Shown piece after piece: positions 2,903-53,121 of a stretch of 64,000 nt of DNA (within the stretch, counting starts at the first letter, position 1; the number at the start of each line of letters is the position of its first letter). The translations under genes and the position numbers were made by a program. Location: positions 17,995 to 81,994 of the forward strand of contig DATDGC010000020.1 in assembly GCA_036522275.1 (NCBI GenBank), read 5' to 3'. The notes below the pieces were generated by a model. The model was not told the DNA's origin. It was given only the letters and a program-made list of their open reading frames with translations, and made no database searches. This DNA comes from Burkholderiales bacterium (GTDB taxonomy: Bacteria; Pseudomonadota; Gammaproteobacteria; Burkholderiales; JAHFRG01).

Positions 2903-3072
2903 TGCTGACCTGCAAGGAAGTTTCAATGCTGGTATCGCACTCCCTGGACCGCCGCTTGAGTCTGGTAGAATGGGTAGGCCTGAGAATACACCTTTTTCTT
3001 TGCGACGGCTGCAGGCACTTCCGCGAGCAGATGGCCTTCATCCGGCGCGCCTGCCAGCGTTATCCGGACTGA
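2902..3072 (+). CDS. small zf-HC2 (ZAS-type) anti-sigma factor, 56 aa; absent from the ORF track
   Basis: The ATG overlaps the sigma stop codon (TAATG). Translation is MLTCKEVSMLVSHSLDRRLSLVEWVGLRIHLFLCDGCRHFREQMAFIRRACQRYPD* and contains the H-x3-C-x2-C motif (HLFLCDGC). Confidence 0.6.
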   Translation: MLTCKEVSMLVSHSLDRRLSLVEWVGLRIHLFLCDGCRHFREQMAFIRRACQRYPD

Positions 3073-3171
3073 ACTCAGGGAAATTTCGGCGGTGAATTCC
3101 TATGGGGGGTTTCGCGCATCCTAACCGGAAAGCTTCGGTAGCAAACGCGTGGAACTCGATCAGAGGTTTCT

Positions 3172-3618
3172 TTAGGGCGCGGTGCTGCGCACTTCGGCCT
3201 GCACTTCCACCACCGTCTTGCTGCGGTCAGCACGCTGCAAAGTGAAGCGCAGCGGTACTTTGTCGCCCCGCTTCAAAGACTTTTTCAAATCCAGCAGCAT
3301 GATGTGTAATCCGCCAGGCTCAAACTTCACCGTTTGCTTCGCGGGCAACTCGAGACTTTCCAGCTGCCGCATAGTCATGATACCGTTCTCCAACCGCATC
3401 GAATGAATTTCTACGCTGCCCGCTACCGGGCTTGAAGCCGCAACCAGCTTGCTTGGCGCAGCACTGCTGATTTCCAGATAAGCGCCCGCCACGCGTTGGC
3501 CGGGAGCCGTGGTCCTCACCCAGGCATGAGCGACCGTTACGGCCTCATCAGCATGAATAGCGGGGCTGCCAAAGCAAAGTACCAGGGTAAGGGTGGCTGA
3601 TTTGAACGTTTTTAACAT
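3172..3618 (-). CDS. periplasmic copper chaperone PCu(A)C (DUF461)
   Basis: Signal peptide MLKTFKSATLTLVLCFGSPAIHA. Also HAWVR...G.R..GAYL.I and the H.M...M.M pattern (VEIHSMRLENGIMTMRQ), plus GGLHIML. Trimmed to the internal ATG because the longer ORF overlaps dacC. Confidence 0.75.
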   Translation of the reverse strand: MLKTFKSATLTLVLCFGSPAIHADEAVTVAHAWVRTTAPGQRVAGAYLEISSAAPSKLVAASSPVAGSVEIHSMRLENGIMTMRQLESLELPAKQTVKFEPGGLHIMLLDLKKSLKRGDKVPLRFTLQRADRSKTVVEVQAEVRSTAP

Positions 3619-3669
3619 GAACTCAGTCTTCACGCAGAACGCAACACATTTGGTATATAATTTTCTTTT

Positions 3670-4803
3670 ATGCAAAAGATGAAACCCTTATTACTATTCC
3701 TGCTGTTCCCGTCACTGCTTTTCGCCCAGCAACTGCCTGTTCCCCAAGCACCCTCGATCGCGGCTAAATCCTATTTGCTCACCGATTTTTACAGCAAGCA
3801 AGTTCTGGTCGGGCAAAATATCAACGAGCGTATCGAGCCTGCGTCGCTAACCAAATTGATGACCGCCTATCTCACTTTCACCGCGCTCAAGCAAAAACAA
3901 ATCACCCTCGAGCAGATGCTTCCGATATCCACCCGCGCCTGGCGTGCCGAAGGCTCGCGCATGTTCATCGAACCCGACAAACCGGTTAAGGTGGACGAAT
4001 TGATACATGGGATGGTAGTGCAATCCGGCAACGACGCCTGCATCGCGCTCGCCGAAGGCATCGCCGGCAGCGAGGAAGTTTTCGCGCAGATGATGAACCG
4101 CGAAGCGCAGCGTCTGGAAATGAAAAACACGCATTTCACGAATTCCACGGGATTGCCTCATCCGCAGCATTACTCTACTGCATATGACCTGTCTTTGCTC
4201 GCAGCAGCAATAATACGCGAATTCCCTGAATACTACCCGCTGTATTCGGTCAAGGAGTACAAGTACAACAACATTTCGCAGACCAACCGCAACCGTCTTC
4301 TGTGGACCGACCCCTATGTGGATGGGATGAAAACCGGTTATACCGAAAATGCGGGTTACTGCCTCATTTCTACCGCGAAAAGAGGCTCGCGGCGACTGCT
4401 TTCAGTAGCCCTGGGCGCTGCGTCGGACAGCGCTCGAGCTATCGAAAGCCAGAAGCTTCTCAATTACGGTTTCCAGTTCTATGACACGCTGCGCCTCTAT
4501 GCAAAAGGTCAGGCGGTGACCAGTTTCGCGGTATGGAAGGGCACCGAAAATTCGGTCAAGGCGGGATTCGCGGAGGATGTTTACTTAAGCATCCCCAAAG
4601 GCCAGTCAGAGCGCCTGAAAGCCACCATGGAAAGCCGGCAACCGCTGATTGCGCCGATCAGCGCCGGGCAAAACGTCGGCATGGTCAAGCTTACCCTGGA
4701 TGGCAAACCGGTAGCAGAATATCCAGTGATTGCACTTGAGAACGTGGAACTCGCCAACATCCTGGGTCGCGAATGGGATAGCCTGCGGCTGCTTTTTAAT
4801 TAA
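3670..4803 (+). CDS. dacC: serine-type D-Ala-D-Ala carboxypeptidase (PBP5/6 class)
   Basis: Signal peptide, followed by SLTK (SxxK), SGND (SxN) and KTGYT (KTG). Confidence 0.9.
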   Translation: MQKMKPLLLFLLFPSLLFAQQLPVPQAPSIAAKSYLLTDFYSKQVLVGQNINERIEPASLTKLMTAYLTFTALKQKQITLEQMLPISTRAWRAEGSRMFIEPDKPVKVDELIHGMVVQSGNDACIALAEGIAGSEEVFAQMMNREAQRLEMKNTHFTNSTGLPHPQHYSTAYDLSLLAAAIIREFPEYYPLYSVKEYKYNNISQTNRNRLLWTDPYVDGMKTGYTENAGYCLISTAKRGSRRLLSVALGAASDSARAIESQKLLNYGFQFYDTLRLYAKGQAVTSFAVWKGTENSVKAGFAEDVYLSIPKGQSERLKATMESRQPLIAPISAGQNVGMVKLTLDGKPVAEYPVIALENVELANILGREWDSLRLLFN

Positions 4804-8235: not shown

Positions 8236-8632
8236 AGAGCCTCTAACATAATGAAACGAATAATGCGACGGCGTCGGTTTCGGAGGCAGGCCGCGAAGCG
8301 AGCCGCGCCGTTGGGTCACTCCCCAATAAGCGGCGAGCGACAAAGGCATGCGCCGAAAGCGCCCCGGACTCGGTCTCGCGCAGCGTGGTGCGGGAAGGGG
8401 CGCAAGCTGCCGCAAACATATCGTTAAACGGGGCGCTCATGCTGCCGCTCCCGCACCCCAAGCTTCGCTTACCGTGTCGCGGCAACCGCCGTCCCCAAGG
8501 GTTGCGGCCAAAAAGCGCGCCTGCTTCGTTGCTCGGCTTACTCGATGTCCCGGCATCGAGTTGCGCCACGCGTCCCGCATTCATCGCTTTTTGGCCAGCT
8601 ACGCAAATCCGTTTCATTATGTTAGAGGCTCT
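8236..8632. repeat. dispersed non-coding element, copy A (full length)
   Basis: 8236..8258 (AGAGCCTCTAACATAATGAAACG) is the exact reverse complement of 8610..8632. The interior is homologous to 48050..48450, and in part to 43766..44034 and 23432..23562. Confidence 0.85.
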
Positions 8633-11433
8633 TAATGTGCTTTTTCCCAGTTCGGTCCCGCCCCAACATCTACAACCAGCGGTACTTCCAATTTGGCAAC
8701 ACCACACATGAGCTTCGGCAACTCGGATTTCAGCAACCCGAGTTCGTCATCCGGCACTTCCAGCACCAGCTCGTCGTGCACTTGCATGATGAGCCTGGCT
8801 TTGAGCTGCTTTTGCCTAAGCCACTCGTGCACCGCAATCATGGCAAGTTTTATAAGATCCGCAGCGGTGCCCTGCATCGGCGCGTTGATTGCCGCGCGCT
8901 CCGCACCCTGCCGGTGCGCGCCGTTGGAGCTGTAGATGTCGGGAAGCCAAAGCCTTCTGCCAAGCACGGTTTCCACAAAGCCCTGTTGCTTGGCTAGTTC
9001 GCGGGTGCGCTGCATGTAGTCCGCAACCCCCGTGTAACGGGCGAAATAACGTTCCATGTAAAGCTGTGCCGCTGCTCGCTCGATGCCCAACTGGCTGGCC
9101 AAACCGAACGCAGACATGCCGTAAATCAGGCCGAAATTAATCACCTTGGCATAGCGCCGCTGCTCCGCCCCGACTTCCTTCGGAGGAATGCCGAAAATCT
9201 CTGCTGCGGTGGCGCGGTGGATGTCCTCGCCTGCGGCAAAGGCTTTGAGCAGGTTCGCGTCCCGCGAAATATGCGCCATGATGCGAAGTTCAATTTGCGA
9301 ATAGTCTGCTGATACAATCTGGTGGCCGGCGGAAGCAATAAACGCTTCGCGGATTCTGCGTCCTTCCTGGGAGCGCACCGGAATGTTCTGCAGGTTGGGA
9401 TCGTTGCTGGCAAGTCTGCCTGTTACCGCAACCGCCTGAGCATAATTGGTGTGCACCCGCCCGGTGGCCGGGTCCACCATGCGCGGTAGCTTATCCGTGT
9501 ACGTGGACTTAAGTTTGGCCAGGCCGCGGTAATCAAGGATGAGCTTGGGCAAAGGGTAATCCAGTGCGAGCTCCTGCAACACATCTTCATCGGTGGATGG
9601 CGCGCCGCCGGGCGTTTTCTTCACCACCGGAAGTTTGTGGCGCTCGAACAGGATTTCCTGTATCTGCTTCGGCGAATTGAGATTGAACGGTTGTTCCGCA
9701 AGCCGGTACACCTCGGTTTCAAGTTCCAGCATTCTGTTTCCCAATTCGCGGCTTTGTTCCCCCAGCAGTTTCACATCCAGCAGCACGCCGTTTCTCTCCA
9801 TGTCAAAGAGCACTTCGAGGAGCGGCATCTCTATACGCCGGTAAATCATCTCCAGTTTGGGGTCGGCAGCAATTTGCGGATATAGTGCCTGATGCAGTTG
9901 TAGCGTGATGTCGGCGTCTTCAGCCGCATATTCGGTGGCTTTGTCCACTGCCACCTGCTCAAAACTGATCCGCCCGGCGCCTTTCCCGGTCACTTCATCA
10001 TAAGTGATGGTTTTGACGCCGAGATGACGCTCCGCCAGATTGTCCATGTCATGCGCCCTGTGGCTTTCCAGCACATAGGATTGCAGCAAGGTGTCATGCG
10101 CAATGCCGGAAAGCACGACGTCGTGATTGGCGAAGATGTGCTTGTCATACTTGAGGTTCTGTCCAAGTTTGGGTTTTCCCGGATCTTCCAGCCAGGGCTT
10201 GAGCCGCTGTATAACCTGATGGAAATCAAGCTGAGCCGGCGCGCCGGAATAACGGTGCGCAAGCGGAATATAAGCGGCATGGTGCACTTCCACCGAGAAT
10301 GATATCCCGACCAACTTGTCCTGCAGCGGATCCAGCCCAGTGGTTTCGGTATCCACCGCCACCAATTGCGCCGCGTGAATACGCTTCAGCCATTTTTCCA
10401 GTTGTGCTTCGGTCAGAACGGTTTCGTAATTCTTTTGTGAGGGGTGAGGAGTAAGTGATGAGTGGCTTGGGCTCACCACTTGGTTTATGGCTTGATCTGA
10501 CTCCTTACTTCTTACGCCTAACCCCTTACTCTCTTTAAGCCAGTTTTTGAATTCAAATCGTTCGAACAGTTCGGCAAGTTTTGCGCTGTCGGGAGATTGC
10601 GGCACGAGATCATCCAGGCTTACCGGCAAAGCCACATCGCATTTGACGGTAAGCAGCTGGCGCGCTTGAGGAAGCCAGTCGAGAGATTTGCGCAAATTCT
10701 CCCCGACGACGCCGGGTATATCATTTGCATGCACCATCAGGTTGTCGAGCGTTTGATACTGTGTCAGCAGCTTCACCGCGGTTTTCGGCCCGACCTTGTC
10801 CACGCCAGGCACGTTATCCACACTGTCGCCAATCAGCGTCAGATACTCCAAGATACGTGAAGGCCCCACGCCGAATTTGGCAAGTACCCCCTGCTCATCA
10901 AGTTTTTCATTGCTCATGGTGTTGATGAGCGTAACCTGCGGGTTAACCAATTGCGCAAGGTCCTTGTCCCCGGTGGAAACGATGCTCTTTATCCCCTCGC
11001 GTGCGGCAAGCACGGTAAGCGTACCGATGACGTCGTCCGCCTCCACGCCTTCAATGATGAGCAGTGGCCAACCCAGGGCACGGATGCATTCGTGGAGTGG
11101 TTCAATCTGGACTGCTAAATCTTCCGGCATCGCAGGCCGGTTGGCCTTGTATTCGGGATACCACTCTTCGCGGAAGGTTTTGCCTTTTGCGTCAAACACG
11201 CAAGCGCTATAATCGGCCTTGTACTCGCTGTGCAAACGGCGCAGCATGTTGAGCACACCGTAAATCGCGCTCGTGGGCTCGCCCCGTCGGTTGCGCAAAT
11301 CGGGCAGTGCGTGAAATGCGCGGTAAAGGTACGAGGAGCCGTCAACCAAGAGCAACGTTTTGCTTCCGCTTGACGGTGCCTCGTGTTCCCTGTTGGAGTT
11401 TCCGGCAGCGTTTTTCATTTCGCCCTGCCGCAC
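8632..11433 (-). CDS. polA: DNA polymerase I
   Basis: 933 aa: 5' nuclease (LLLVDGSSYLYRAF), 3'-5' exonuclease (VAVDTETTGL) and pol domain (DYSQIELR, QVHDELV). Confidence 0.97.
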   Translation of the reverse strand: MRQGEMKNAAGNSNREHEAPSSGSKTLLLVDGSSYLYRAFHALPDLRNRRGEPTSAIYGVLNMLRRLHSEYKADYSACVFDAKGKTFREEWYPEYKANRPAMPEDLAVQIEPLHECIRALGWPLLIIEGVEADDVIGTLTVLAAREGIKSIVSTGDKDLAQLVNPQVTLINTMSNEKLDEQGVLAKFGVGPSRILEYLTLIGDSVDNVPGVDKVGPKTAVKLLTQYQTLDNLMVHANDIPGVVGENLRKSLDWLPQARQLLTVKCDVALPVSLDDLVPQSPDSAKLAELFERFEFKNWLKESKGLGVRSKESDQAINQVVSPSHSSLTPHPSQKNYETVLTEAQLEKWLKRIHAAQLVAVDTETTGLDPLQDKLVGISFSVEVHHAAYIPLAHRYSGAPAQLDFHQVIQRLKPWLEDPGKPKLGQNLKYDKHIFANHDVVLSGIAHDTLLQSYVLESHRAHDMDNLAERHLGVKTITYDEVTGKGAGRISFEQVAVDKATEYAAEDADITLQLHQALYPQIAADPKLEMIYRRIEMPLLEVLFDMERNGVLLDVKLLGEQSRELGNRMLELETEVYRLAEQPFNLNSPKQIQEILFERHKLPVVKKTPGGAPSTDEDVLQELALDYPLPKLILDYRGLAKLKSTYTDKLPRMVDPATGRVHTNYAQAVAVTGRLASNDPNLQNIPVRSQEGRRIREAFIASAGHQIVSADYSQIELRIMAHISRDANLLKAFAAGEDIHRATAAEIFGIPPKEVGAEQRRYAKVINFGLIYGMSAFGLASQLGIERAAAQLYMERYFARYTGVADYMQRTRELAKQQGFVETVLGRRLWLPDIYSSNGAHRQGAERAAINAPMQGTAADLIKLAMIAVHEWLRQKQLKARLIMQVHDELVLEVPDDELGLLKSELPKLMCGVAKLEVPLVVDVGAGPNWEKAH
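10437..10533. repeat. tandem-repeat-armed hairpin H2, inside polA
   Basis: Left arm GTGAGGGGTGAGGAGTAAGTGATGAGTGG. Right arm CTCCTTACTTCTTACGCCTAACCCCTTACTCTC. The arms are complementary allowing G-U pairs. Confidence 0.75.
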
Positions 11434-23241: not shown

Positions 23242-23245
23242 TTTT

Positions 23246-23570
23246 GCCGGGGGCAGCCCGGCTGCTGGTTACTTTTTCTTGCTTGGCCAAGAAAAAGTAA
23301 CCAAAAAGAAAGCCACCCCGGTTCCGCGCCCCTTCGACAAGCTCAGGGGTTCCCTGCGTTGCTCGCCAAACCGGGCGGCTGCGCAACTCAACCTCGGCCT
23401 TACGGCCTCGGGATTCGGACAGTGCTCGCCGGCGCCCCGGACTCGGACTCGCACAGCGTGGAGCGGGAAGGGGCGCAAGCTGCCGCAGGAGACACCGTGA
23501 AACGGGGCGCTATTGCTGCCGCTCCCGCACCTAAGAGCTTCGCTCACCGTGTCGCGGCAGCCCCCCGGCA
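23246..23570. repeat. dispersed non-coding element, copy B (composite: D-type module fused to the A/C-type core)
   Basis: 23246..23431 is homologous to the reverse complement of 48995..49217 and includes the perfect hairpin GGTTACTTTTTCTTG-CTTGGC-CAAGAAAAAGTAACC (23267..23302). 23432..23562 is homologous to the core at 8359..8490. Confidence 0.8.
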
Positions 23571-42678: not shown

Positions 42679-43764
42679 ATGGCGCTTCTGGAAATCCGCA
42701 ATGTCACCCGCCGCTTCGGCGATCTGGTCGCAGTAGATAACGTCAGTATCAATATCGAGGCAGGAGAATTCTTCACTCTGCTCGGCCCTTCGGGTTGCGG
42801 CAAAACCACGCTGCTGCGGATGATTGCGGGATTCGATTTGCCCGACGACGGGCAGATCCTGCTCGAAGGCAAGGACCTCGCGGGCACGCCGCCGGAGAAA
42901 CGCCCGATTCATACCGTGTTTCAGAGTTACGCGTTGTTTCCGCACATGACGGTTACGGGCAACGTTTCTTTCCCGCTGAAAATGGCGGGCAAAGCCGCCG
43001 ACGAAATCCACGCCAAGGTCAAGGAAGTGCTGGACTTGGTTCATCTCTCGGATAAAGGCGAAAGTTTCCCGCATGAACTGTCCGGAGGCCAGAAGCAGCG
43101 TGTGGCGCTCGCCCGCGGACTGGTTAACCAGCCGCGACTGTTGATGCTCGATGAACCGCTGGGGGCGCTGGATGCCAAGCTGCGCGAGGAAATGCAAATC
43201 GAGCTTATAACTTTGCAACGCGATGTTGGTATTACGTTCGTGTTTGTAACCCACTCGCAGGCTGAGGCGCTCGCGCTTTCACATCGTATTGCGGTGATGA
43301 ATGCCGGCAGGATCGAGCAGATGGACGAGCCTTCCAAAATCTACAGTTTTCCCGCAAACCGTTTTGTCGCCGACTTCATTGGCCGCATCAACATGCTGCA
43401 AGCCGAAGTGCTGGAAGCGGCCTCCGATCATCTGCGCATCCGCATTCCCGGCATGGGTGAAGTGCGGGCGCCCGCCAAAACCGGTGCCGCGCGCGGCCAG
43501 AAAGGAATGCTGGCGCTGCGCCCCGAGCAGGTGCGTATTGCCGCCAAGATTGATGATGTTGCGCGCGACAATCACTTCCCCGGAAAAGTTCGTGATTTTC
43601 TGTATGTGGGCGACATCACCACTTATATCGTTGACCTTAACAACGGCGCGAAAATTGAAGCGCTGCTGCCTAATTCGGCGCCGGGGCGCGCCAAATTCTT
43701 CGAAATCGGCGATGCTGTCGAGGTCGCCTGGCGCCAGGATGCGGGATTATTCCTAAGTGAATAA
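42679..43764 (+). CDS. potA: spermidine/putrescine-type ABC transporter ATP-binding protein
   Basis: GPSGCGKTT, LSGGQKQRVALAR, LMLDEPLGALD and a C-terminal TOBE-like domain. Confidence 0.85.
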   Translation: MALLEIRNVTRRFGDLVAVDNVSINIEAGEFFTLLGPSGCGKTTLLRMIAGFDLPDDGQILLEGKDLAGTPPEKRPIHTVFQSYALFPHMTVTGNVSFPLKMAGKAADEIHAKVKEVLDLVHLSDKGESFPHELSGGQKQRVALARGLVNQPRLLMLDEPLGALDAKLREEMQIELITLQRDVGITFVFVTHSQAEALALSHRIAVMNAGRIEQMDEPSKIYSFPANRFVADFIGRINMLQAEVLEAASDHLRIRIPGMGEVRAPAKTGAARGQKGMLALRPEQVRIAAKIDDVARDNHFPGKVRDFLYVGDITTYIVDLNNGAKIEALLPNSAPGRAKFFEIGDAVEVAWRQDAGLFLSE

Positions 43765-43765
43765 A

Positions 43766-44034
43766 AGAGCTCATCTCGGGAATATCCACGTGATGCGTTG
43801 CGGTCCAGAAAGCGATGACTGCAAGGCGCGAGGAGGCCGCATAGTACTCCTATGCAACGACGAGCAACACCGCAGGCGCGCTTTTCTGGCCGCAACCCTA
43901 TGGGACGGGGCGATTTTGGGCCACTTCGGCGTTGCTCGCCGCTTATTTGGAATGGCCAAACTGCGCGCCTCGCGCCTAGAACTGTCACCAAAATCGCCGC
44001 CGTCGCACGCGCGGCTGTTCCCGAGATGAGCTCT
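43766..44034. repeat. dispersed non-coding element, copy E (internally deleted)
   Basis: 43766..43782 (AGAGCTCATCTCGGGAA) is the exact reverse complement of 44018..44034. The interior is homologous to both flanking thirds of copy A in reverse orientation and lacks the central core. Confidence 0.8.
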
Positions 44035-48049: not shown

Positions 48050-48450
48050 GGAACCTCTGATTAAGTCCTCCACGGATTGCGTTGCTGGCAAAATGTGGAT
48101 GGATGCGAGGCGCGCGACGAAGGTCGTAGCCTGGACTACGAAGCCAAGGAGCGCAACGACGCAGACGCCGCATTTTGCCGCAACCCAGATGGGACGGCTG
48201 CCGCGACACGGTCAGCGAAGCTTGGGGTGCGGGAGCGGCAGCATGAGCGCCCCGTTCCACAATGTTTCTTGCGGTAGCTTGCGCCCCTTCCCGCTCCACG
48301 CTGTGCGAGACCGAGTCCGGGGCGCCTTTCCGGGCGGTCTGCTTTGTCGCTCGGCTTGCCAAGGGTGGTGGCCATTGGCTGCGCCTCGCTTCGCGCATCC
48401 CATCCAGGAAAGCGGCCGTCGCAACTGCGAGGGACTTAATCAGAGGTTCC
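48050..48450. repeat. dispersed non-coding element, copy C (full length, inverted relative to copy A)
   Basis: 48050..48068 (GGAACCTCTGATTAAGTCC) is the exact reverse complement of 48432..48450. The interior aligns end to end with the reverse complement of copy A. Confidence 0.85.
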
Positions 48451-48934: not shown

Positions 48935-49217
48935 ATCGGGGGCTGCCGCAATTATGTCCCCATCTGCGGCGCTGAGGTTTGGAAGGCAAGTTGGGGGATT
49001 CCGGCGAGCACTGTCTGAGCACGTGGCTGCAAAGCGGATCGTGCGAGTTGCGCAGCCGCCCAACTTGCCAACAAACCGAAGGAAGCCCTGAGCCAACGAA
49101 GGGCCGGCGCAGCGGGGCGGCTTTCTCTTTGGTTACTTTCGCTTGGCCGCGCAAGAGAAAGTAACCGGCTGTCGGGCCGCCCCCGACACAAACCACCAGC
49201 CGCCGGGCTGCCACCGG
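48935..49217. repeat. dispersed non-coding element, copy D (second module type)
   Basis: Homologous to the reverse complement of 23246..23431. Contains the hairpin GGTTACTTTCGCTTG-GCCGCG-CAAGAGAAAGTAACC (49131..49166). It abuts the metH stop codon. Confidence 0.75.
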
Positions 49218-53011: not shown

Positions 53012-53121
53012 GTGTCTCGCTTTAGCAGTATTTGTTAAGCGCCCGCAAGCTGAAATCAAATCGGCGCAGTTAGGGCAACAAATTACCTTGTAGTCTCGGC
53101 CTTGTCAACTTTCATTAAGTT

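Follow-up and report, generated by a model that had tools for sequence, protein, structure and literature searches.

ERIC/IRU and Correia (NEMIS) elements are imperfectly palindromic small intergenic repeats that are found inside operons and can form long hairpins when they are co-transcribed. To our knowledge, no mosaic of nested GC-rich modules has been described for them. In the Bacillus cereus group, the MITE-like repeat bcr1 (~155 bp) is flanked by 5-bp direct repeats and has a cruciform-like fold that is kept by compensatory changes (Delihas 2011, PMC3184786). A MITE of Porphyromonas gingivalis has been described as carrying an internal minisatellite, with copies that differ in length (PMC4596501).

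Here, a repeat in the polA-tlpA spacer of a Burkholderiales bacterium is compared with these systems. The window, i.e. the whole stretch of DNA that was analyzed, has a length of 64,000 nucleotides. An earlier note on this DNA had described the repeat (copy A) as one non-coding unit of ~400 bp, with a conserved interior and a perfect terminal inverted repeat (TIR) that is different in every copy. Copy A consists instead of two nested modules, a ~270-bp TIR-bounded shell and a separate ~125-bp GC-rich core. It is very probably a composite of two non-autonomous mobile repeats, an IS5-ended MITE shell and an independent core. The features in the window are given below; L numbers denote loci found elsewhere.

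8237..8631, + strand: shell copy A (A-type), nested core included; TIR arms at ~8237-8258 and 8610-8631, boundaries from the empty polA-tlpA spacers of L061-L063
8234..8236, TTA on the + strand and TAA on the gene strand: left 3-bp target duplication, from the filled versus the empty site
8632..8634, TAA on the - strand: right target duplication, which is the polA stop codon; the polA ORF 8632..11433 ends here
8359..8486, + strand: nested core in copy A (GCGCCCCGGACTCGG...GTGTCGCGGCAAC); nhmmer match at 8356-8482; absent from the A-type shells of L055 and L034
48050..48450, - strand: shell copy C (C-type, TIR GGAACCTCTGATTAAGTCC); perfect 19-nt arms, nested core at ~48201-48330
43766..44034, - strand: shell copy E (E-type, TIR AGAGCTCATCTCGGGAA), naturally coreless; relatives at L043 340-609 and L020 3036-3304
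23431..23557, + strand: core copy B, without a shell, adjoining an F2 repeat; from alignment and nhmmer match
3109..3170, - strand: truncated solo end of a C-type shell (GAAACCTCTGATCGAGTTCC...); from BLAST and nhmmer matches

The arms of copy A (8236-8258 and 8610-8632) are indeed exact reverse complements, perfect over 23 nt and 96% matched over 26 nt. The TIRs of copy C (48050-48450) and copy E (43766-44034) are perfect over 19 and 17 nt, respectively. The alignment of copy A with 48050-48450, with the outer parts of 43766-44034 and with the core at 23431-23557 could be reproduced as well. The GC-rich core is common to 8356-8482, 23431-23557 and 48201-48330, and its copies in the window are 91-95% identical in ungapped segments and ~86% identical in a global alignment. 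Copy E has no core and matches copy A in the outer parts only; it is a complete TIR-bounded shell of 269 bp. Copy B (23431-23557) is the reverse case, a core without a shell. To the copies listed before, a sixth one was added, the truncated shell end at 3109-3170. The interiors of the shells in the window are 63-69% identical to each other and their TIRs 48-58%. With lengths of 269-401 bp, the window copies are within the size of bacterial MITEs (under about 600 bp). Copy C is ~90% identical to many copies in other MAGs.

The non-coding nature of the elements, proposed earlier, was borne out: a Pfam search of the ORFs across the elements yielded no match, and the peptide strings that recur across copies do so because the DNA repeats. 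The window copies are located between co-oriented genes, as had also been noted, and the three shells occur in both orientations relative to the transcription of the flanking genes. Copy E starts 1 nt past the TAA stop (43762-43764) of the gene at 42679..43764. The shell end at 3109-3170 has a small ORF (2903-3073) on one side and the gene at 3172..3675 on the other; the translation of the small ORF contains Cys/His-rich motifs, which we take to be reminiscent of a putative anti-sigma factor.

To define the ends of copy A, a check that the earlier note had proposed, orthologous polA-tlpA spacers were taken from contigs encoding TlpA homologues. In L061-L063 (TlpA 92% identical), the spacer is empty and reads …GCACAT TGA GGAACAAGATGAC… (short form …GCACAT TGA GGAACAAG…). 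On the gene strand the window reads …GCACAT TAA [GAGCCTCTAAC…GTTAGAGGCTC] TAA GGAACAGGATGAC… (short form …GCACAT TAA[GAGCC…GGCTC]TAA GGAACAGG…), where the square brackets enclose the element. In the frame adjacent to the polA stop, CAT TAA [element] TAA GGAACA in the window thus stands against CAT TGA GGAACA in the empty site. The spacer is also empty in L058 and in L059/L060. The shell of copy A was inserted as a transposon and duplicated a 3-bp target, T(N)A, namely the polA stop codon. A stop was left in place by the insertion; the polA stop is TAA in the window and TGA or TAG in insertion-free relatives (L058, L059, L061).

The empty sites also bear on the origin of the terminal hairpin. 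The occurrence of three different perfect stems in one window would suit the earlier suggestion of a hairpin that is picked up or made anew at each insertion; this could be a pre-existing palindrome or an inverted target duplication. At the empty polA-tlpA sites of the relatives, however, no palindrome was found, only a T(G/A)A stop codon, and a pre-existing or site-made hairpin is therefore refuted. A hairpin that is foreign to the element can accordingly be given almost no probability.

One close relative, L055, encodes a TlpA protein identical to that of the window and shares 93-96% identity with the window at the DNA level. The A-type shell of copy A occupies the identical site in L055, but the core is missing, and the element is 273 bp long compared to 397 bp in the window. 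The A-type shell of L034, which is at a different locus, is also coreless. Since both of these A-type shells are coreless, the core entered copy A after the shell did.

A scan of the genome collection with a 19-mer of the core identified 52 loci, of which about 45 were real copies, in 6-7 Burkholderiales or Betaproteobacteria MAGs. More than 30 shells were found across these 6-7 MAGs. The C-type TIR GGAACCTCTGATTAAGTCC was found with ≤3 mismatches in ~35-36 genome loci of other Burkholderiales MAGs, where it bounds shells with about 80-94% identity to copy C. C-type shells without a core, 274-276 bp long, were observed in L008, L002, L016 and L171. The A-type TIR recurs at a second locus, L034, and in L055, and the E-like shells (L043 340-609, L020 3036-3304) carry their own matched arms. 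Judged from these sequences, the three TIRs in the window are specific for subfamilies (A, C and E) and not for single copies. Nor are the arms perfect in every copy, as the earlier note had it, since single-arm TIR mutations are frequent in the C subfamily.

Copies are also polymorphic between genomes. The window is empty at ~53033-53039, where L020 carries an E-like shell (3036-3304), and at ~56361 and ~13617, where L020 (6633-end) and L050 (2775-3453) carry C-type shells. The filled/empty pair at L020 3036 showed no clean duplication, and the filled site has fewer flanking bases. An exact-protein look-up for empty sites of copies E and C returned one contig, which ends inside the element, and no record for the other protein. 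A plasmid collection searched with copy C by blastn contained a single weak match, to the interior, on a Comamonas plasmid with no annotation there. A literature search on MITEs in nitrifiers and Burkholderiales yielded nothing useful.

The ends of the shells resemble those of the IS5 family. IS5A of E. coli K-12 has the ends GGAAGGTGCGAATAAG and GGAAGGTGCGAACAAGTCCC; the C-type TIR is identical to the E. coli IS5A end at 14/20 positions and the variant TIR of L043, GGAACCTCTGAACAAGTCC, at 15/19. A metagenome scan for the TIR, with a query that avoided the subterminal bases of the shell itself, identified at least 120 loci. Among these, L107 2004-3152 (1149 bp) and L141 24-1232 (1209 bp) are full-length insertion sequences that have exactly the 19-nt C-type TIR. 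Their proteins, of 313 and 321 aa, score 334 and 333 bits, respectively, against NF033581 (IS5 family transposase). Both originate from other metagenomes, and their subterminal regions bear no relation to those of the shell. Among the metagenome matches listed, the C-type TIR also bounds many unrelated MITEs of 150-290 bp. On these similarities, the C-type shell is most likely a non-autonomous IS5-family element. The recurrence of identical TIRs, at many sites that are unrelated as well as at the ends of complete insertion sequences, also speaks against a hairpin made at each site.

No transposase was found within the window or in the 52 genome loci, nor did the window and the examined loci contain an insertion sequence with A-type or E-type ends; a TIR shared with an autonomous insertion sequence was observed for the C-type only (L107, L141). 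Beside the solo TIRs of L004, L029 and L001, only housekeeping genes were present and no autonomous element. Two further candidates for an insertion sequence were rejected: in L183 1775-3500 / L171 81-1806 a gene for an MFS transporter separates a solo TIR from a shell, and in L163 1773-3998 (2226 bp) a pair of TIRs encloses two metabolic genes. These arrangements in L163 and L183/L171 could be composite or passenger-carrying, or chance neighbours. Among the loci searched for an autonomous element, L184 contains a 338-aa ORF.

Young copies of the C-type TIR class are flanked by clean 4-bp YTAR duplications (TTAA/TTAA, CTAG/CTAG, CTAA/CTAA). Given these young copies, a TA duplication model (IS630-like) for the C-type was dropped. 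In older C-type copies the target duplications are mostly degenerate, as in copy C of the window (AAAG/ATAG), and that of copy E is likewise imperfect or uncertain. The flanks of older C-type shells look inverted-symmetric (TAR|GG…CC|YTA), which would fit an inverted duplication made at the site, but 4-bp YTAR duplications, the non-palindromic CTAA/CTAA included, explain this symmetry. Copy A differs from the C-type pattern in its GAGCC tip and its 3-bp duplication. For the IS1031 group in the IS5 family, insertion at a 3-nt site has been reported as a common property (PMC2516522).

In the mechanism proposed here, a DDE transposase of the IS5 family, provided in trans, would bind both TIRs of the shell, excise it and insert it at a short TA-containing target, which would be duplicated in the process. 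The duplication is 3 bp, T(N)A, for copy A and 4 bp, YTAR, for the C-type TIR class. The three TIRs in the window would mark three old subfamilies (A, C and E), and the simplest explanation for two arms that are alike within a subfamily would be that both must fit the same transposase. The core would have entered the shell at a fixed C-rich site as a second, independent repeat.

The earlier note had also considered a structured RNA with a covarying closing helix. When single copies were folded and compared with shuffled sequences, z-scores of -7.4 to -8.1 were obtained. Covariation was analyzed in alignment A2, which contains 16 shells of all subfamilies, coreless or with the core deleted. The A2 consensus is a three-way junction, in which columns 1-31 pair with 261-291 as the closing stem, followed by a left hairpin (32-145), a 2-bp mini-hairpin (146-153) and a right hairpin (154-260). 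Standard pairs were formed in 93.5% of the cells, compared to 35-40% when the partners were slid, and 51 of the 79 pairs had changes on both sides, compared to 13-19 after sliding. None of 500 shuffles matched the observed pairing values; because the shell sequences are tree-related this shuffle control overstates the significance, and the slid controls, which are fairer, are still far below the observed values. Covariation is strong in all 12 helices, and compensatory pairs are present in every long helix. Invariant bases gather at the junction (GCGACGG, CCGTCCC, GGGTTGCGG, GCAACGC). In the C subfamily, paired sites have 2.3-fold fewer private substitutions than unpaired sites, and of the 58 at paired sites 18 are wobble-paired, 18 compensated and 22 pair-breaking. 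The folding constraint on the shell is real.

This covariation, the fold z-scores of -7 to -8 and the clustering of invariant bases at the junction would all suit a structured non-coding RNA gene or cis-acting RNA motif for which mobility is secondary. The location of the copies between co-oriented genes, where they are probably transcribed, points in the same direction, and bcr1 offers a precedent as a transcribed MITE that is kept folded by compensatory changes (PMC3184786). The signal is not strand-specific, however. The consensus fold of the reverse strand is equally good (-85.5 versus -78.6 kcal/mol), and neither the G-U counts (63 on the reverse strand versus 91) nor the A-C counts (22 versus 24) revealed an asymmetry; the three window copies, moreover, lie in both orientations relative to transcription. 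An Rfam scan of the whole window at the gathering score gave 0 matches, and an E-value scan over copy A chance-level matches only (E ≥0.45). No promoter-like or terminator-like site was found in copy A. In addition, the TIR that forms the closing helix is of the IS5 type and comes with a target duplication, and single copies decay, broken TIR pairs included. A shell that is mainly an RNA is therefore considered unlikely. Of the earlier suggestion, the compensatory changes were confirmed and extend over the whole shell, but strand bias and evidence for a discrete RNA gene did not emerge.

The constraint gives no ground for assigning the shell to an RNA gene; it could act on single-stranded DNA, or on RNA of either strand when the shell is co-transcribed. 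The three-way junction that is kept by compensatory changes argues that shell lineages that kept spreading would have been constrained to fold as a single strand; the folded strand may be DNA during transposition or replication, or RNA upon co-transcription. We know of no need for internal hairpins in IS5-type DDE transposition. The strength of the compensatory pattern suggests a role of folding in how such elements spread or are tolerated. Three occurrences of the motif TTGCG are found at the junction (A2 columns 28-36, 140-149 and 254-262): TTGCGACGG close to the left end, GGGTTGCGG in the middle and, on the other strand, TTGCGTTGC close to the right end. A protein might bind at this motif.

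The core was found in several settings among the genome loci: inside shells at one fixed position, inside the F2 repeat and with other flanks. In total, at least 8 different flank contexts were observed, including F2 and non-repeat DNA. In L008, L013, L016, L022 and L052 it forms head-to-tail arrays with a period of 126 nt, and in L001, L008, L016 and L050 it is itself interrupted by the insertion of a shell. The entry site in the shell is a fixed C-rich sequence (…CCCCG/CCGCGCCG). Coreless A-type shells read GAAA(T/C)CCGCGCCGTCCC, and the filled window copy GAAA[GCGCCCCGG…GTCGCGGCAA]CCGCCGTCCC; for the C-type, coreless shells read GGAAAGCCCCGTCCC and filled ones GGAAAG[GCGCCCCGG…GCGGCAG]CCGTCCC. 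The junctions of the core inside F2 behave in the same way. The core is located 5' of the C-rich motif; its junctions show no duplication that is clean, and 2-3 bases of the target are absent. A motif of this kind is also present at the 5' end of the core itself, and the head-to-tail arrays may have arisen in this way. The window and L055 differ by 124 nt net, with 4 nt replaced.

No TIR was found in the core and no transposase could be linked to it. Folded as DNA, it had a z-score of about 0, i.e. nothing beyond composition, and the alignment of 47 cores gave no consensus structure and no covariation, the copies being too alike to show covariation. IS200/IS605-type elements, which lack a TIR and a target duplication, insert next to a fixed short motif and have subterminal hairpins, were considered for the core; it has no TIR or clean duplication and lies 5' of a C-rich motif, but a significant fold was not found.

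Taken by themselves, the missing TIR, fold and covariation, the same position of the core in A-type and C-type shells and the 124-nt net difference from L055 with 4 nt replaced and no clean duplication would be compatible with an indel, not a mobile element, that spreads through gene conversion or homologous recombination and through replication slippage; arrays would be a further product of this. Against this stand the at least 8 unrelated flank contexts, F2 and non-repeat DNA included. Furthermore, the right junction in the A-type shell keeps the A-specific CGCCG directly beside the core, which argues against a long conversion tract, and the cores are 86-95% alike compared to 63-69% for their host shells. 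Such an indel is a less likely but viable explanation. The preferred reading is a core that is independently mobile, or at least independently spreading, as its many contexts, an identity above that of the host shells and the window/L055 difference would indicate.

It is rather improbable that the fold or the core represents something new. In that case the junction would be functional, either as a DNA or RNA structure for mobilisation or as a regulatory or processing RNA that an IS5-type vehicle spreads through operons, or the core would belong to an undescribed class of small site-specific elements that insert 5' of a CCCCG-like motif; such a core might be moved by a recombinase that reads sequence and not ends.

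Further short repeats are also present. The F2 repeat, a third family, is found in the window at 23242-23389 and 49045-49191 (reverse complement); the arms of these copies are 78-81% complementary over 49-95 aligned nt, and the palindrome GGTTACTTTTTCTTGCTTGGCCAAGAAAAAGTAACC lies inside. In other MAGs the core is inserted in F2 at AAAGAAAG^CCACCCCGG, and in the window core copy B is located ~40 nt downstream of F2. A second core variant, of which the first ~36 nt are common with the core, occurs in the loop of the right hairpin (L048 ~620-750, L015 ~500-630, L052 ~1790-1920). GC-rich inserts of ~120 nt (L018 1113-1236, L019, L052) and of ~95 nt (L039 ~2350-2445, L001 ~575-680) were also observed inside shells. 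The lineage thus carries a mosaic of nested short repeats.

The paradox of a conserved interior with differing perfect TIRs is resolved by IS5-type MITE subfamilies and a nested second repeat. Of the outcomes that the earlier note had named as refuting an unusual architecture, a match to a known insertion sequence family was found for the ends. The unusual architecture that this note had claimed is largely explained by such subfamilies, the nested repeat and an ordinary target duplication. The three-armed fold kept by compensatory changes is left as the sole unusual trait of an otherwise ordinary element. A compensatory pattern of this strength is noteworthy in a DDE-type MITE, and the several diverged subfamilies allow tests of the role of folding.

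The repeats also have practical consequences. Public metagenome contigs repeatedly end inside them, as in L053, L054, L056 and L057 (78-152 nt upstream of tlpA), in L186 (70 nt after an ABC ATPase gene) and at the contig ends of L020 and L034; the repeats therefore fragment assemblies. False ORF calls arise over them, and in L055 the element was called as a gene of 117 aa, which has no Pfam match. Located on stop codons and in the spacers of housekeeping operons such as polA-tlpA, they could alter mRNA stability or coupling.

Compared with known systems, the shells have the properties of bacterial MITEs: they are short and non-coding, have TIRs, occur as dispersed polymorphic copies and, for copy A, show a duplication between the filled and the empty site. 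Neither a REP/REPIN element nor a known Rfam family could be recognized in the shell. Integron attC sites share with the shells a structure that is conserved while the sequence varies, but they have no target duplication, whereas the shells have IS5-type TIRs at their ends and no gene cassettes attached to them. An assignment to attC was rejected: the tips are RGARCYT / AGRGYTCY, without the R''/R' consensus (RYYYAAC / GTTRRRY), and the elements are located between housekeeping genes. ERIC/IRU and Correia (NEMIS) elements are single-hairpin palindromes that keep one TIR or consensus per family, in contrast to the shells. The P. gingivalis MITE likewise has a second repeated module in its interior; there it is a tandem minisatellite, whereas the 125-bp core is dispersed and also lives outside the shell (PMC4596501).

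For the ends, the IS5 family is the closest match. The IS5 end GGAAGGTGCGAACAAGTCCC is similar to the shell end GGAACCTCTGA(TT/AC)AAGTCC(C), and the C-type TIR class makes 4-bp YTAR duplications; the 3-bp duplication of copy A is also a length known from this family. In contrast to IS5-family insertion sequences, the shell has no transposase, is 270-400 bp long and has an interior unrelated to their subterminal sequence, and copy A deviates in its 3-bp duplication and GAGCC tip. For the conserved fold, bcr1 appears to be the closest precedent. It is likewise dispersed and non-coding, with short flanking direct repeats, a non-conserved genomic distribution and a compensated fold (PMC3184786). 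The two differ in that bcr1 belongs to another phylum, is unrelated in sequence and has no known IS partner, whereas the ends of the shell match the IS5 family and its fold is a three-way junction that hosts nested repeats.
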